This document shows positions 18,058 to 39,561 of a stretch of 39,611 bases of DNA, one piece after another (the first letter of the stretch is position 1; each line of letters begins with the position of its first letter). Both the position numbers and the translations under genes were made by a program. Under the pieces are notes generated by a model, which was not told the DNA's origin, did not search any database, and was given only the letters and a program-made list of their open reading frames with translations. This DNA comes from a virus, in UHGV virus genome UHGV-0179848; one strand, written 5' to 3'.

Positions 18058-18473
18058 ATGAAGCCCTTCTGGTTGCGCCCGAATACCGCCGCATCAGACT
18101 GAACCTGTGGTAAATCCCCGGATTCAGGGGCCGCACCGTTCGTATCCACACCGACCGGCACATTGCCGTTCATGACATCTTTCAGCCAGGCCAGCGCTTC
18201 GCGGTAACGGTCACGCGCCTGATCGGAGGCTCTCTGATCGCACAGGTAATAAAAGGCAATCGCGCAACAGTGCTGAACAAGAACTGCCGGAATAACCTCC
18301 AGCGGCAGCGTGTAACGGGCGGACAGATAGCTGTCGATAAGGGCTGACGCATCTGTCAGCGCCCGGTTCAGCTTGCGCGTGTCCGGCTCATCCGAACGGG
18401 GCACTGCCAGTAACGGCCTGAGCAAATCCTCGCGGTAACGCGCCCGCATATCGGTTTCAGTGGCGTAATTCAT
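18054..18473 (-). CDS. Head-tail connector protein (Mu gp36-like)
   Basis: 139 aa; synteny with Mu J. Confidence 0.7.
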   Translation of the reverse strand: MNYATETDMRARYREDLLRPLLAVPRSDEPDTRKLNRALTDASALIDSYLSARYTLPLEVIPAVLVQHCCAIAFYYLCDQRASDQARDRYREALAWLKDVMNGNVPVGVDTNGAAPESGDLPQVQSDAAVFGRNQKGFI

Positions 18474-18889
18474 GCGTGGGCCTTTTTCGCCTGTTTCGCT
18501 TTGTTACCGGTCTTTTTCCGGGGAGCATCCTGTCCGGCTTCGGCTTCGGCTTCGGCTTCGGCTTCGGCTTCGGCTTCGGCTTCGGCTTCGGCTTCGGCTT
18601 CGGCTTCGGCTAAATCTGTACCGGCCACTGCATGAACCACACCCGCCACGCTCCCCGCATCATCAGCAGGCGTCTGTAGTATTCGCACAGTGAGGCATGG
18701 CTCCGCCTCCAGTCGGGCAAGCTGCTCCGGGGTGACCTCAACCTGCTGACGTCCACGCGTGAACAGGAACCCCGCACGACGAAACGCCGAACGACTGCAA
18801 CGCACTTCTGCCAGCACCGTGACAGAATTGTCACCACTGACCTGAAGACCTGAATCATCTGTTGCTGCCACAGTGTGATGTTCATTCAT
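18470..18889 (-). CDS. Hypothetical head-region protein with (Ala-Glu)n repeat and Lys-rich C-terminus
   Basis: 139-aa ORF between major capsid and gp36-like genes; about 13 AE dipeptides encoded by a hexanucleotide microsatellite. Confidence 0.6.
   Translation of the reverse strand: MNEHHTVAATDDSGLQVSGDNSVTVLAEVRCSRSAFRRAGFLFTRGRQQVEVTPEQLARLEAEPCLTVRILQTPADDAGSVAGVVHAVAGTDLAEAEAEAEAEAEAEAEAEAEAEAEAGQDAPRKKTGNKAKQAKKAHA
18535..18610. repeat. Tandem hexanucleotide repeat (GGCTTC/GAAGCC), about 12.5 copies
   Basis: Perfect repeat directly visible; in frame within the 18470-18889 gene. Confidence 0.95.
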
Positions 18890-21654: not shown

Positions 21655-21776
21655 ATTGCCTCCGTGAAACTACCTGGTTAAAATAAAAGCAGGTCGGTGT
21701 ACTCTTAACTGGTAAAGCGGCGCCTGATGGTTTTTTCCTGAGGGATGTTTATGCGGGTTCGACCCCCGCCACCGAC

Positions 21777-23102
21777 CTACAATTCACCCTCCAGTAATTC
21801 CAGCTTTCCACCGCGCAGATCATCAAGTAATGCCTCCTTTTTGACTCTGTAGGCATTAATCACCACATCCAGCTTATCCGGCTGACGTTTCACACTATAA
21901 GGCGCATTGACGGCAATCTTTGCCGTTCCGTCACGGGTTTCAGTGATGTAAAGCAGATTCTGATGGACATGATCCCACAGCACGGCATCAGGCGCGGCTA
22001 GCATTGCCGGTAATCGCCCGAAATCCTCCGGCGTCAGGGCAATGCCGTCATTCTGATGTTTCACGCTGTCCGCATGGAGCACATTTTTACCGCTCATCGC
22101 CAGCAGGCGGGCCGGTGGCGTTCCCGTCCGGCTTTCCACCGCCTGCGCAATACTTTCGGTCATAAAGCCCAGCGTGCGGATATCGTGACCACCTCGCCGG
22201 GTCTTCATGATGTTTTTTGCCCAGATGCGGAACGCCAGCTGCCGCTCCGGGCTGTTGTTCATCTCCTGAACCACCATTTCCCGTAACGCCGGGCTTTTCA
22301 CCTCGATCAGTTTACGGATCAGCGCCTGGTCTGTGCCGAACGCCGCCGAACCGGGGTTATATGACCAGCCCACATCCGGTGTCATGGTTCTGGTGCCATC
22401 TGAATATGTGGTCACCGGCATTTCTCTGACTTCTCCGGTCTGCTTATCCACGCCAGCCTCAACATTGCGGGTGGAGAGATGATCCTGACCGGATGAAACG
22501 GATAACCCCATTGCATCCAGACGGGCCTGAGATAATGGCCGGACACGGCAGCGGCAGTTCCAGCCATTGGGCGGGTAGTGTGTATTCCAGAACGGATCGT
22601 CATAGCGGAATACCAGCCCGTTAAAGGCGGAATGTGCCGGGCGGGTGCGGCTGTCCATCACCGCCACATACTGCCAGAACGGATGCGTGTCCGTGTTGTT
22701 CATCATCTGCGTGTAACGCCCGGCATTGTAAGCCACACGGGTGTTCACGTTGTAAATCAGCGCCAGACGGCGGGGACTGCCCAGCTGCACTTCTTCCGCG
22801 TTACCGGCACTGTCCACCACAATCTGTTTTCCCCACCATCCCAGCTTTTGCAGGCGGGGTGTCAGCGTGCGAATAAATGCTTTCTGTGAAATCCCCTCAT
22901 CAACAGCACGCTGCACTTCCGCCTGTAGTGTGGTCAGTACGTCCAGGCGTGCCACTTTTGCCGCCGTGAATGAACGGGCATGAACATCCGCGTCTGTTTC
23001 GAACCAGTTCCAGCTGATATGCGCCCCTTTGGCGCGGAAGTATGCCACCGCCTCTTTTGAGGGAAGCGTGGCGGCATAACCCAGATCAATCCCCTGTGCC
23101 AT
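21777..23102 (-). CDS. Head morphogenesis protein (Mu F / gp30-like)
   Basis: 441 aa downstream of portal. Confidence 0.8.
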   Translation of the reverse strand: MAQGIDLGYAATLPSKEAVAYFRAKGAHISWNWFETDADVHARSFTAAKVARLDVLTTLQAEVQRAVDEGISQKAFIRTLTPRLQKLGWWGKQIVVDSAGNAEEVQLGSPRRLALIYNVNTRVAYNAGRYTQMMNNTDTHPFWQYVAVMDSRTRPAHSAFNGLVFRYDDPFWNTHYPPNGWNCRCRVRPLSQARLDAMGLSVSSGQDHLSTRNVEAGVDKQTGEVREMPVTTYSDGTRTMTPDVGWSYNPGSAAFGTDQALIRKLIEVKSPALREMVVQEMNNSPERQLAFRIWAKNIMKTRRGGHDIRTLGFMTESIAQAVESRTGTPPARLLAMSGKNVLHADSVKHQNDGIALTPEDFGRLPAMLAAPDAVLWDHVHQNLLYITETRDGTAKIAVNAPYSVKRQPDKLDVVINAYRVKKEALLDDLRGGKLELLEGEL

Positions 23103-35229: not shown

Positions 35230-35457
35230 TTATCTGACTTGTTTTGCACCAACAGAACGGCATATTCCCCTGTAAACTTCTGTCGCACCTTCGCGATCAA
35301 GTCCGGCAGATATCACCATTCGTGTGCGGTCATTAAATTCAAAAAGTAAATCACCACATTCTTTATTTTCGGCCAGTGAAATCACCTTCACGTTATCGAA
35401 ATTCACCAGGTAAAAGCGTCCGTAAATATCCGGAATATTAAATACCGCCATAATCAC
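35230..35457 (-). CDS. Hypothetical early protein (75 aa) in the Mu kil position
   Basis: Immediately downstream of B, overlapping stop/start; function not inferable. Confidence 0.4.
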   Translation of the reverse strand: MIMAVFNIPDIYGRFYLVNFDNVKVISLAENKECGDLLFEFNDRTRMVISAGLDREGATEVYRGICRSVGAKQVR

Positions 35458-36395
35458 ACCTGTGAGAGTAATTCAGGGTTGGTATAAACCTCTTTAAAGG
35501 CCGCATTAATATGTTTTTCTGTCAGCACAGCGCCTTCACCACTGGCGGTGATCCACGCCTGGTTAAGCGTATGCGTCAGAACACGTAATGCTCCCGGTTT
35601 TTCAGCGATAGCCTGCATGACGGCCAGCTCGGCCTCACCACTGATCCCCCATGCCCTGGCAATGGCCAGCACATCCGCCTTTTTGGCCTTGCGAAGTTGT
35701 TTTGTACGGGCAAGACGGCTGAACAGGCGCGATAAATCATCAACGGCGCGGCGTCCACCTTTAAACAGTCCGCGCGGGTTACCAATAAGCACCATCCCGA
35801 TCCCCGTGGCGTCCTGGATTGCCCTGAGTTGCTCCAGACCGTCAATACCAAGATGATCCGCCTCATCAACAATCACCAGTCCACGCGTTCCCATCAGGCG
35901 ACGGCGGATTGCGCGGGATAATGCCCCTTTGTTCGCGCGGGTGTAATCAATCCCCAGTTCCTCTGCCAGCTCCAGCAGACACTCCGTGACGCTGGAATGC
36001 GCAGGCGACAGGGTGATCATCCAGGTGTTCGGTTGCTCCTGACAGTAATTACGGGCTGTGGCCGTTTTACCCACACCCGGTACGCCCACAATGACGTTAA
36101 TACAGCCCATCAGGCGAACCGCCTGAAACAGTGCGCGCAGCTCCTGGACTGTCTGCGTTTCAACAAACTGCGGCGGCTCGGGCAGTGCGCTTTGTTTATT
36201 CCAGTTCTCATACCAGGAACGCAGGGAAGCAGCCACAGCAGCGTTATCGCCTTTATATTTCCCCTTACGGAAAGCCGATAATGTGCCGTCGGAAATTCCC
36301 GCCTCTCTGGCGATGGCATACTGCGTCAGTACGCCGCCATCAATAAGTTCATCAATGGTCTTGATTACATCGTTAATATCGGTCATATTATTCAC
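35454..36395 (-). CDS. B: MuB-like transposition ATPase (target DNA activator)
   Basis: 313 aa; Walker A GVPGVGKT; collinear similarity to Mu B (LPEPPQFVETQTV, VIVDEADHLG, KKADV..IA.AW.I.GE, KPGALR). Confidence 0.9.
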   Translation of the reverse strand: MNNMTDINDVIKTIDELIDGGVLTQYAIAREAGISDGTLSAFRKGKYKGDNAAVAASLRSWYENWNKQSALPEPPQFVETQTVQELRALFQAVRLMGCINVIVGVPGVGKTATARNYCQEQPNTWMITLSPAHSSVTECLLELAEELGIDYTRANKGALSRAIRRRLMGTRGLVIVDEADHLGIDGLEQLRAIQDATGIGMVLIGNPRGLFKGGRRAVDDLSRLFSRLARTKQLRKAKKADVLAIARAWGISGEAELAVMQAIAEKPGALRVLTHTLNQAWITASGEGAVLTEKHINAAFKEVYTNPELLSQV

Positions 36396-36469
36396 CTCGC
36401 TTGAGACAGCATTCTCCGAGACAGAAACCTCAAATAACCTGAGTCACCCCTCGGGTTATTTTTTTTATT

Positions 36470-38560
36470 TCAGGCCAGCGGATCATTTTCTTTTAATTTC
36501 GCTTCGAGCAGTTGCAAACCCCGCTGGAAATTACGCTCGTATTCTTCGTCAGGTTCATCGTCAGCGACTGGTTGCTGAACGGTCACCGTATTACCCACAG
36601 GGCGGTATATGTTTTCCAGCCATGGCTCCTGCGGCTTGTGCTCCAGCACGTTGACAACCTCATCCTCGGCATCACGGATTTTTTCCTCTGCGCGTTTACG
36701 CATACCTTTAAGGCGCTGCTGCTGTTTGTAGTATTCCGCGCTGACAGGGAAGGCTTCGCGTTTATTGCCGTCCCATACCGCCTCGCAAATCACGCTGCCA
36801 TCCGGGCGGCGTACGGTAATTCGTTCGGCATCATGAATGTCATAGCTGATAAGCACTTTGCGGCCATGTTCATCACGCAGCTCGGGCGCGTAGTAAATAT
36901 TATTCAGCCAGCGTATTTCACAGCGTCTTACAGGGCGTTCCACCATCGGCCGGAACATGTCCCGCAATTCCACATCGGACAGCCATTCAATTTCCGTGTC
37001 CTCTTCCGCCAGGCGTTTTTTTCTGAACTCCGCCGGGCTGTAATGTTTACCGTTCGGCTTTATGGGTAATTCATCGTGCGGCCGGTTGTTGTACCACTCA
37101 ACGCCGTCACGAATGGCATCAATCAGTTCAGACCAGGACGGTAAATCACGCATCGCTGACTGCTGCCGGGCGTTCAGCCGCTTGCCCTGTTGCAGGGCAC
37201 TGAATGCCGAGCGTAAATCGCGGTTGGTTTTACGTAACGTCTCGCGATCTGCACCTTTCCCGAAATAGGTGCGGTATTTACGGGCTATGCGCATCGGTAA
37301 TGTGCGGTTAAGCCGTTCGATAATGCCCCGTCCCTGCGGATTACCGGCAATCCCGGTCGGGTGATTAATCCCCAGTCGCGGTAGTATCCCCACAACCTCC
37401 TTATCCAGGATGTCGGCCGTTTCCCCCGAGCCATTATCCGAGTAATACAGAAACGGTTTGCCGTGATGGCGAATGCCGTGCTGTATGGCACCGGCTACGG
37501 CGAAAACATTTTCAGCCAGGTCAAGGCTCCAGCCCACCACAAAGCGCGTGCCACCGTCGATAACAAAGGTCACTTCCGGTGCAAATGGTCGCCCGTGAAC
37601 CGGGTGCGCACATTTCAGCTTCATGCCGTGACCGTCACCAATCCAGACATAATTCACCGGCATTCTGGACCAGTCGCGGCGCGTGAATCCCTCAAGCTGG
37701 CGGTATTCACTGCCGGTCACCCGGCCTTTTTGTTTCACCACTTCCGGCAGTTTCTTCATCGCGCGGCGAATGGTGTCATAAGAGGGCATGATATCGAGCA
37801 TATAAGGCTCATCAGCGTGCCGGTGCTGCCATTCGGCGACAAAATCCTCGTAAGCCTCGGTCATTGGTCGGCCGTTTGACTGGCGATACTGCGCCAGAAA
37901 CTCGGGCAACCAGCTAATATCTTCGGCTTTTATTTCCTGACGTTTACCCGGTGCCAGTAAAAGTAGGCGTTCAGCGGCGTTCTGCGCCTTGTTAAAGGCC
38001 GCAATCCAGCGTTTCAGCGTGATTTCACTCAACGCGCGGCTGTTTCCCTTTTTGGCGTTCGCCGTTTCAACCATTGCCACAATGCGTTCGTCCAGTTGCG
38101 AGCGTGACAGACGGTCAACAATAAACCGGATAGCTTTAGCGCAGCTGAAACCGGGTTGTTGCGCGAATTTAAGCACCTCGCTGACAATCGCAATTCGTGC
38201 ATCGGCCACCTGGCGCTGTTTTTCAGTCAGTGCATTGATACGTTCGACCATCAGTTGGGGTGATCCGCGATATGCCTCCACCGCATCAACCACGGCAGGT
38301 GAGCGTCTGGCCTTTGTCACCACCGGAACCGGTGACTCATCGGCTTTTTGCGCCATCAGTTGCAGGGCGTAGCGTTCACGTAATGCCTGCTGCGTCACTT
38401 CAGGTAAACAGTCGATGCTGTATTCAGTTGCTTTAGATCCTGAGCGACGACGGGAACAACAGCTTTTCCCTTGTGCGTAACGTTGTAATGCCTGGCGAAT
38501 ACCTTTTGTAGTTGCAGGCATTCCGGGCGCACCAATCAGTTCTTTTGCAATGAAATACAT
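36470..38560 (-). CDS. A: MuA-like DDE transposase
   Basis: 696 aa; N-terminal DNA-binding domain resembling MuA domain I (KELIGAPGMPATTKGI versus Mu KECANLPGLPKTSAGV); size and position as Mu A. Confidence 0.95.
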   Translation of the reverse strand: MYFIAKELIGAPGMPATTKGIRQALQRYAQGKSCCSRRRSGSKATEYSIDCLPEVTQQALRERYALQLMAQKADESPVPVVTKARRSPAVVDAVEAYRGSPQLMVERINALTEKQRQVADARIAIVSEVLKFAQQPGFSCAKAIRFIVDRLSRSQLDERIVAMVETANAKKGNSRALSEITLKRWIAAFNKAQNAAERLLLLAPGKRQEIKAEDISWLPEFLAQYRQSNGRPMTEAYEDFVAEWQHRHADEPYMLDIMPSYDTIRRAMKKLPEVVKQKGRVTGSEYRQLEGFTRRDWSRMPVNYVWIGDGHGMKLKCAHPVHGRPFAPEVTFVIDGGTRFVVGWSLDLAENVFAVAGAIQHGIRHHGKPFLYYSDNGSGETADILDKEVVGILPRLGINHPTGIAGNPQGRGIIERLNRTLPMRIARKYRTYFGKGADRETLRKTNRDLRSAFSALQQGKRLNARQQSAMRDLPSWSELIDAIRDGVEWYNNRPHDELPIKPNGKHYSPAEFRKKRLAEEDTEIEWLSDVELRDMFRPMVERPVRRCEIRWLNNIYYAPELRDEHGRKVLISYDIHDAERITVRRPDGSVICEAVWDGNKREAFPVSAEYYKQQQRLKGMRKRAEEKIRDAEDEVVNVLEHKPQEPWLENIYRPVGNTVTVQQPVADDEPDEEYERNFQRGLQLLEAKLKENDPLA

Positions 38561-38561
38561 A

Positions 38562-38810
38562 TCATGACGCCTTTCTCATATAGCTCTTAACCTGGTATCT
38601 GCTGGGCCAGATTTCTTCAGGTGACACACCAAGAGCATCAGCAATTATTTGTTGATATGGGCGGCAAGGGGTGCGTAATACGCTTTTCAGCGAATCCCTG
38701 CTGTAACCAGCCTTTAAAGATAAAGAGCGCAGTGATAAGCCAGCCATGTGCAGGCGCGCCTTGATGATTTCTGGCGGCCAATCGTGATCTGAAACTTCTC
38801 TTCTACTCAT
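38562..38810 (-). CDS. ner: Ner-like DNA-binding regulator (Nlp/Ner family)
   Basis: KARLHMAGLSLRSLSLKAGYSRDSLKSVL...QQIIADALGVSPEEIWPSRY parallels Mu Ner. Confidence 0.85.
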   Translation of the reverse strand: MSRREVSDHDWPPEIIKARLHMAGLSLRSLSLKAGYSRDSLKSVLRTPCRPYQQIIADALGVSPEEIWPSRYQVKSYMRKAS

Positions 38811-38976
38811 ACTTCCTCTATTCTAAAAAGTTACCCGCACGGATATTCGGACGGATATCTGTACGGGTAAACGATAGAACAAGAAAAGAACCAAATCAAG
38901 GTATTTTGTTCTTTTTGTTCTTTATATTGTTTTCATCAATAAAATCAATTAGATAAGCGCGAAGGAACCTAAAGGC
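38811..38976. promoter_or_regulatory. Divergent early/repressor promoter-operator region
   Basis: 166-bp AT-rich gap between divergent repressor and ner starts; palindrome TTACCCGCAC...GTACGGGTAA (38821-38860) with internal CGGATAT direct repeat; inverted pair AGAACAAGAAAAGAAC / GTTCTTTTTGTTCT (38875-38911). Confidence 0.6.
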
Positions 38977-39561
38977 ATGAACATGAAAAAAAGTTCTTTT
39001 CTTGACGAAGGAAAAGAACCAGTAATCGAGCGAATATTTCGCCTTGCAGAGCGTTACAAATCGAGAAGTGAGGCGGCTAGGGCCTGGGGAATCAATATTC
39101 AGACATTGCAGAACTATTACAAAAGGAGAAACAATCAGCCACCACCACAGCCAAGAAAGCACCATCTCCAGAACATTGCTGAAAAAGAACATGTATCAAT
39201 GGAGTGGCTAATCTATGGTTATAATAATGAGTCAATCACAAAAAAAGAACTATTAGAACAAATAGAAAGAACAAAAAAACAAGATGTAAATGATGGTGAC
39301 TCCATCATCATGAGGGCGTGGGACTCGCTAACTTCATCTGAACAAGAGATTTTGTCCAATTTATTGATCAGAAAAGGGGCCGAGTTACTAACCATTTTAC
39401 TTGATACTGATATTCAAAAGCTGCACTCATTGAGTGGGGTCAAAAGAGCATTGGCATTGAGTCTGCAAGAGTTACCCGATGATACTGTAAGAGAGATTTA
39501 TGAAGAATGTGAGGCTAAGGTTAATCATTTAAATGTAACCCAGAAAAAGGCCGGTGCGTAA
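38977..39561 (+). CDS. Prophage repressor, CI-type HTH domain (Mu c-equivalent position)
   Basis: Divergent from ner-A-B; N-terminal IERIFRLAERYKSRSEAARAWGINIQTLQNYYKRRNN...SMEWLIYG resembles phage CI-repressor HTH domains. Confidence 0.7.
   Translation: MNMKKSSFLDEGKEPVIERIFRLAERYKSRSEAARAWGINIQTLQNYYKRRNNQPPPQPRKHHLQNIAEKEHVSMEWLIYGYNNESITKKELLEQIERTKKQDVNDGDSIIMRAWDSLTSSEQEILSNLLIRKGAELLTILLDTDIQKLHSLSGVKRALALSLQELPDDTVREIYEECEAKVNHLNVTQKKAGA

Follow-up and report, generated by a model that had tools for sequence, protein, structure and literature searches.

Genes and prophage setting

The window analysed here is a 39,611-nucleotide stretch of viral DNA (UHGV virus genome UHGV-0179848), and its early-control region lies at positions 35454-39561. 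In the order given by the list of open reading frames, this region comprises a rightward gene, rep (38977-39561, + strand), a divergent control region of 166 bp with 35% GC (38811-38976), and three genes on the - strand, namely ner (38562-38810), A (36470-38560) and B (35454-36395). rep encodes a lysogeny repressor of 194 aa with two domains and a low-confidence linker. The products of ner, A and B are an 82-aa Ner-type regulator with an HTH_35 domain, a 696-aa Mu-type DDE transposase with Mu-transpos_C and HTH_Tnp_Mu_1 domains, and a MuB-type AAA+ transposition ATPase with Phage-MuB_C and AAA_22 domains. In phage Mu, too, the left end of the transposable prophage carries these genes in this order and orientation, and ner-A-B is collinear with Mu.

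The window DNA is 99.9% identical to part of E. coli STEC2018-607, where it lies inside a 39.4-kb Mu-like prophage that carries mom/com, an invertase, Mor, Gam, and Mu-type head and tail genes. The left end of the prophage is ~210 bp past the end of the window, and rep diverges from the ner-A-B operon at this end. Other copies of the prophage reside at different genome positions, indicating varied chromosomal insertion. The locus forms the lysis-lysogeny switch of the prophage, which belongs to a Mu-like transposable type known from E. coli O157 and other Shiga-toxin-producing E. coli (STEC).

Both prophage ends carry repeats of GTATCAAA, with three copies on the - strand at the right end (402-409, 424-431 and 459-466) and three at the left end (about 4262, 4314 and 4408 in locus L001). 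Away from the prophage ends there is one copy in the window. These repeats are likely to be transposase end-binding sites, and we predict them to be R1-R3 and L1-L3. Exact copies are absent from the immunity region, and one-mismatch matches are no commoner there than elsewhere in the window. The left prophage end reads ...GGTATCAAATGATTCA, followed by host DNA.

In STEC2018-607 the prophage splits the cellulose synthase gene bcsA (window 1-402, and L001 from 4424 onwards), and because of this interruption the strain is probably unable to make cellulose. RefSeq flags an internal stop in a gp436-family gene (window about 18073-18492), a truncated tail-protein fragment beside the invertase (about 5645-6031) and a frameshifted gene near com (about 1538-1916), all placed from L018 coordinates, so the prophage may be partly defective. 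RefSeq also lists a "tRNA-OTHER" between head genes (about 21690-21777, + strand), which was not reproduced by ARAGORN, as this program detected no tRNA or tmRNA in the whole window.

Domains of the transposase and the repressor

The Mu repressor blocks both transcription and transpososome assembly through a DNA-binding domain that is common to it and the transposase. The original prediction held that the transposase of the window keeps this N-terminal domain, and profile searches agree. Residues 6-141 of A match HTH_Tnp_Mu_1 in Pfam (27.2 bits, with a cut-off of 23.3). A profile of nine A N-termini, from which Mu sequences were excluded, matches the solved I-alpha structure of MuA (1tns, 1.3e-6) and, more weakly, the domain of Mu c (1g4d, 0.028). 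In an alignment, the motif G-PG-P-T--G...G-KA-EY----LP is common to the A N-terminus, MuA I-alpha and the Mu c head, and residues 3-63 of A match positions 10-69 of the Mu c family, PHROG 7148. To judge from these matches, the transposase keeps the Mu I-alpha winged-helix domain, which the alignment and the match to 1tns place at residues 1-65 (38366-38560, - strand). The domain has 20 invariant positions over nine diverged loci.

The remainder of the early operon is likewise of Mu type, and its proteins are very diverged from those of Mu. A matches Mu-transpos_C in Pfam (2.1e-17) and PHROG 310 (2.8e-212), and also MuA by BLASTP, with local alignments at about 22-31% identity; the transposase is very distant from MuA, and phmmer gave no match to MuA core structures. 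Ner matches PF13693 HTH_35 in Pfam (2.5e-19) and PHROG 769, and is 43% identical to Mu Ner. B, which matches Phage-MuB_C (8.2e-25) and AAA_22 in Pfam, is 49% identical to MuB. A related locus from a Sodalis MAG (L008) has an in-frame stop at codon 40 of the transposase (about 2650), so this symbiont prophage is probably a decaying copy.

The N-terminal part of the repressor, at residues about 14-82 (39016-39222, + strand), is a five-helix HTH of the Cro/CI (XRE) type, in which residues 41-49 (IQTLQNYYK) are the predicted recognition helix. An AF2 model built with 24 homologues has a mean pLDDT of 75.6, with values of 84-92 at residues 21-80; in it, five helices (residues 16-80) are followed by a disordered linker and an all-helical C-terminal half. 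In Pfam, rep has weak generic HTH matches only, and HTH_Tnp_Mu_1, present in A, is absent. PF07022 (Phage_CI_repr) matches 16 of 22 rep relatives at E <= 0.1 (best 7.4e-6), and gave no match to the window rep itself at E <= 1. A direct search of the rep sequence against the PDB returned nothing useful (one match, E 0.081).

The repressor N-terminus was also compared with the domain it might have shared with the transposase, since a match there would have refuted the original prediction. In hhalign, the rep family and the A N-terminus align with E 0.57, and the corresponding profiles (A5 and A6) give a probability of 1.2% over 17 columns, that is, no match. Homology of the rep head to MuA I-alpha is ruled out by these profile comparisons and by the Cro/CI fold, and the head is a Cro/CI-type HTH unrelated to I-alpha. 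We also considered a full repressor of the lambda CI type. This is ruled out, as Pfam gave no match to Peptidase_S24 in rep at E <= 1 and the C-terminal half is all-helical. Because this LexA-like self-cleavage domain is lacking, RecA-mediated induction is not expected for rep.

The C-terminal half of rep instead resembles that of Mu c. It comprises a helical domain at residues about 106-190 and a tail ending ...TQKKAGA (39292-39558, + strand). Residues 89-191 match PHROG 7148 at 4.5e-7, a family in which Mu c itself scores 6.7e-73. Reciprocally, residues 90-184 of Mu c match PHROG 3037 at 1.1e-4. This latter family, called "transcriptional repressor", is matched by rep residues 1-192 at 3e-56 (profile positions 3-189 of 189). 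Alignment of the two family profiles with hhalign (A2 against A8) yields E 6.3e-5 over 73 columns (residues 104-177 against 98-173), and at an hhalign probability of 64% the C-terminal homology to Mu c itself is moderate. The proteins also end alike, in ...QKKAGA for rep and ...VKKAV for Mu c. The C-terminal tail of Mu c controls DNA binding and sensitivity to ClpXP, and the C-terminal half of rep presumably acts in oligomerisation and regulation.

A phmmer search with the C-terminal 90 residues alone, in a space of 1.84 billion protein representatives, found 26 proteins (cluster representatives) with different heads. The Mu-type PF02316 is present in 6/26 (best 3.5e-22), HTH_3 in 12 and Phage_CI_repr in 16 (PF07022, best 7.9e-9), and the best Mu-headed tail match is P0089 (1.5e-11). 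A search with Mu c found two proteins, P0082 and P0083, in which an HTH_3 head sits on a Mu c tail. By these comparisons, rep is a chimera of a Cro/CI head and a Mu-type repressor tail, and the exchange of heads on this tail is recurrent. The claim that the repressor is of CI type therefore stands for the head, and fails for the protein as a whole, which has a Mu-c-type tail and no S24 domain.

The last 30 residues of P0082 and P0083 are nearly identical to those of Mu c, and the 90%-identity cluster of P0083 has 342 member sequences. Repressors of this type are encoded at 4001-4609 of L019-L021, in genuine Mu-type E. coli prophages with Kil, MuB, and a transposase carrying HTH_Tnp_Mu_1/2 and DDE_2. 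Weak matches to PF07037 (YfeC-like) cover the linker and the start of the tail, at rep residues 87-138 (39235-39390), in 11/22 family members, and reach 1e-6 in a wider set. The Mu-type repressor tail may also be present in the E. coli YfeC family.

Control region and immunity types

The operator region was expected to carry palindromes of its own, and two inverted repeats stand out there. The first, with 19-nt arms, spans 38831-38870; it pairs at 16/19 positions, and 0/500 dinucleotide shuffles reach this. It is a 40-bp element composed of two 16-bp palindromes, TTACCCG-CA-CGGATAT and ATATCTG-TA-CGGGTAA, with 8 bp between them (consensus TTAYCCG-N2-CGGRTAA), and this architecture is kept at the same position in 12/12 related loci. 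The element is a candidate Ner operator, and alternatively or additionally a candidate site for I-alpha. The second repeat, at 38884-38915, has 13-nt arms that pair at 12/13 positions, which 2/500 shuffles reach.

The heptamer AAAGAAC occurs five times in 38871-39030, compared with 0.10 expected and with 0/2000 shuffles, although these figures are somewhat flattering given that the motif was picked after looking. Three copies lie around 38884-38924 and two inside rep codons 6-15. L003, L009, L011, L012 and L013 likewise have AAAGAAC as their commonest 7-mer at these positions. The first three copies belong to candidate rep half-sites, AAAAGAACC (38884-38892), GTTCTTTT (38908-38915) and GTTCTTTA (38917-38924). 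The other two make up the perfect inverted repeat GTTCTTTTC-N9-GAAAAGAAC (38993-39019), which is a candidate distal or autoregulatory operator. This intragenic repeat overlaps conserved S-F and K-E-P codons, and so may be a by-product of coding. Residues K13-E14-P15 are encoded by AAA GAA CC in 12/12 loci, and with the S-F codons make the inverted repeat perfect.

An early promoter for ner-A-B, pE, is predicted on the - strand at 38871-38899, with a -35 element TTGATT (38899-38894), a 17-bp spacer and a -10 element TATCGT (38876-38871), of the form TAnnnT. The candidate half-sites surround the -35 element, and the predicted start, near 38864, falls within the 40-bp element. The -35 position is conserved in relatives, as TTGACA in L008 and L009, TTGACT in L013 and TTGAAT in L003. 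A stringent scan of 38700-39100 for sigma-70 consensus promoters and terminators found no sites, so we infer pE from hexamers with four of six consensus positions and from this conservation. Two AAATCAA boxes occur 49 bp apart (38893-38899 and 38942-38948), the first coinciding with the predicted -35 element, and related loci retain the TCAA core of each. At the second, a conserved TCAAT box, no -10 element conserved across loci was found for either a rightward rep promoter or a second leftward promoter. Matches to the IHF consensus WATCAANNNNTTR, as read from the sequence of the control region, are near-misses only.

RefSeq names the 194-aa product a "hypothetical protein", a name that would suit an accessory regulator in a prophage whose lysogeny is kept by other means. 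We consider such a role very improbable. The gene is at the left end and divergent from ner-A-B, exactly in the place of Mu c; it shares a homologous C-terminal half with Mu-type repressors; AAAGAAC sites flank the predicted early promoter; and no other regulator gene is present between rep and the prophage end.

The arrangement of rep divergent to ner-A-B recurs in 12 related loci. The rep/ner/A layout is found in about 194 E. coli genomes, in other Enterobacterales, and in Pseudomonas phage VW-6B, whose annotation gives C repressor, Ner and MuA. It is also found in Mu-like phages of Yersinia, in Mu-like inserts in Stx phages, and in prophages of Shigella, Serratia, Erwinia, Mixta, Sodalis and others. 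The pairing of a Cro/CI-headed repressor with an I-alpha transposase is the rule across the whole lineage, and an identical rep protein is present on 147 contigs.

Three immunity types, those of the window, L002 and L022, occur on one E. coli prophage backbone and are separated by sharp recombination joints. In L002, Ner is 100% identical to that of the window and A is 97% identical, with F3V and A29V as the only changes in I-alpha. The DNA is 95% identical up to 38907, and homology ends at 38907/38908, inside the operator cluster. Beyond this joint, Rep is only 44.6% identical. L002 carries AAATACC/GGTATTT at the three positions where the window has AAAGAAC half-sites, and the first arm of its intragenic repeat is GGTATCTTT, which resembles its own half-site. 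The recognition helix shifts together with the half-site, from QTLQNYYKRR in the window to NTLNSYFKGG in L002. However, at 38900-38907 the window keeps the GGTATTTT of L002, which makes the exact geometry of the operators ambiguous.

In L022, A is 93% identical overall to that of the window, but a block running from A codons 1-45 through ner (43%) and the intergenic region to rep codons 1-170 has been replaced. The joints are at 38426/38427 (A codon about 45) and at 39488/39489 (rep codon 171), where homology resumes. The boundaries are the same as those of the module that determines heteroimmunity between Mu and D108, which consists of c, ner and the 5' end of A. Unlike that module, the exchange between the window and L002 alters the repressor and its half-sites only, leaving Ner and I-alpha untouched. 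An L002-type exchange depends on repressor and transposase having unrelated heads. The module had been predicted to be swapped relative to Mu. Genuine swaps are indeed seen within the lineage, but relative to Mu itself a whole swap is not, as only the head differs from Mu c and ner-A-B is collinear. Immunity specificity is nonetheless very likely to be different from that of Mu, because the operators, as read from their sequences, are the phage's own.

Among 195 E. coli genomes, the block of I-alpha, ner and proximal DNA is intact in 194, whereas the rep of the window occurs in only 90; no natural recombinant that parts I-alpha from ner was found in this set. On the basis of these counts and the L002 and L022 exchanges, the transposase head is inherited with ner and the ner-proximal DNA, and not with the repressor. 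The target of I-alpha would then be in 38811-38907, the DNA that is inherited and exchanged together with I-alpha, and would be distinct from the repressor half-sites.

Alternatively, the I-alpha-like domain could be a relic without enhancer function in this lineage, its replacement along with ner in L022 reflecting a chance site of recombination. Only one independent swap with that boundary has been seen, and the distance of the transposase from MuA, including the missing phmmer matches, also fits a relic. However, 20 positions remain invariant, the classical boundary between Mu and D108 has its counterpart in the joint at codon 45, and the block is intact in 194 of 195 genomes. We regard a relic as unlikely.

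Within 38811-38907, the 40-bp double palindrome might be bound by I-alpha as an enhancer site rather than by Ner, or might serve both proteins. It offers four half-sites within 40 bp, conserved in all loci. The Ner of L005 is the most divergent (55%), yet its element is the second most similar (85%), as is its I-alpha, in which the TTKGIRQALQR helix is identical. In L022 the element is replaced along with I-alpha, but so is Ner. The Ner sites of Mu and D108 are adjacent to ner and downstream of the early promoter, and the position of the element by ner and downstream of pE matches them. Covariation of the element with Ner and with I-alpha over ten loci is not significant either way (partial Mantel p 0.15 and 0.27). 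Binding by I-alpha is thus a tentative proposal, and we prefer Ner as the protein that recognises the element.

Proposed switch and related phages

Taken together, these features suggest the following switch, which we think is probably correct in outline. The Cro/CI head of rep would read the AAAGAAC-containing half-sites flanking the -35 element of the leftward promoter pE; a second, probable target is the inverted pair within its own first 15 codons. The Mu-c-type C-terminal half would supply oligomerisation, and the KKAGA tail might give control of stability, by analogy with Mu c. Binding of rep would turn off transcription of ner-A-B. For Ner, the most likely binding site is the 40-bp double palindrome immediately after the promoter start, and the I-alpha target, presumed to be a transposition enhancer, would be located in the ner-proximal half (38811-38907). 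The specificity of the repressor could then be exchanged without touching the transposase.

Compared with Mu, the window has the same HTH_35 Ner, an I-alpha-headed transposase with Mu-transpos_C, a MuB protein and a repressor without S24, whose C-terminal half is homologous to that of Mu c and whose tail is similar (KKAGA, compared with KKAV in Mu). The difference is in the repressor head. That of Mu c is a winged helix with homology to I-alpha of MuA, which gives c and A common sites, whereas that of the window is a five-helix Cro/CI HTH. Because the heads are unrelated, rep and A, unlike their Mu counterparts, cannot use homologous domains on the same sites.

How far the logic of Mu is retained depends on where the enhancer lies. 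The Mu enhancer coincides with O1-O2, and it has been placed in an AT-rich segment beside c (PMC5977238). The window could keep this logic through overlap, with an enhancer interleaved with the rep half-sites, so that bound repressor sterically blocks transpososome assembly. In addition to the Mu precedent, the DNA shared by the window and L002 crosses the -35 region to 38907, between the rep half-sites, and the Mu-c-like C-terminal half suggests similar higher-order looping. On the other hand, the half-sites are changed in L002 and I-alpha is not, so rep and the transposase must recognise different bases, and no I-alpha motif was identified. We view such overlap as a possibility worth entertaining, but somewhat doubtful.

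A full separation is likewise somewhat doubtful, and we offer it as a conjecture. The enhancer, read by I-alpha, and the immunity operators, read by the Cro/CI head, might be physically and genetically separable, with the repressor silencing transcription only and not competing for the enhancer. If so, direct competition between repressor and transposase, a textbook feature of Mu, would be dispensable for stable lysogeny, and the tolerance of repressor-only swaps, such as that between the window and L002, would be explained. The three immunity types on one backbone are natural material for locating the enhancer and testing enhancer occlusion.

Pairs of a CI-like repressor and a MuA-like transposase have been published previously. 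In the Bacteroides hankyphage, the CI-like repressor RepC_HP is paired with a MuA-like transposase and governs the early operon (PMC12135933), and the Pseudomonas D3112/B3 group likewise has a CI-like repressor of the early operon and a MuA-like transposase (PMC5977238, PMC4378225). By their published descriptions, these phages have the same repressor-transposase pairing as the window. The lambdoid repressors 434 cI, P22 C2 and lambda CI have a Cro/CI HTH head, as does the window rep, but rep lacks S24 and its C-terminal half is of Mu type. We know of no report that the repressors of hankyphage or the D3112/B3 group combine an HTH with a Mu-c-type C-terminal half.

The protein family itself is already filed as PHROG 3037. 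Its members from isolated phages are 34-45% identical to the window rep and have the same rep/ner/A layout. The family includes the "C repressor" of VW-6B and proteins of Yersinia vB_YpM_5/6/Tongde, Mu-like inserts in Stx phages and O157-type prophages, and its members differ among themselves in operator half-sites and recognition-helix residues. In published accounts of related phages, the protein is named C-repressor and the domain difference passes unremarked (PMC10434027). The hybrid-repressor switch is therefore a real, common and already catalogued variant, and we reject the view that it is a new kind of system. In the searchable literature, which excludes most subscription journals, the home of the classic Mu work, we found no description of the hybrid architecture, of the three kinds of head on a Mu-type tail, or of the two kinds of swap.

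The lineage is common in Shiga-toxin-producing E. coli, and it shows that repressor and transposase need not share a domain as they do in Mu. At least three kinds of head, namely winged helix, HTH_3 and Phage_CI_repr, occur on the Mu-type repressor tail, so an exchange of immunity may or may not involve the transposase head. In annotations, the gene left unnamed by RefSeq can be labelled the prophage repressor. Sp18, a Mu-like prophage of O157 Sakai, is not induced by mitomycin C (PMC2669165); if the 91.5%-identical O157 copies are Sp18, this behaviour fits a repressor without an S24 domain.
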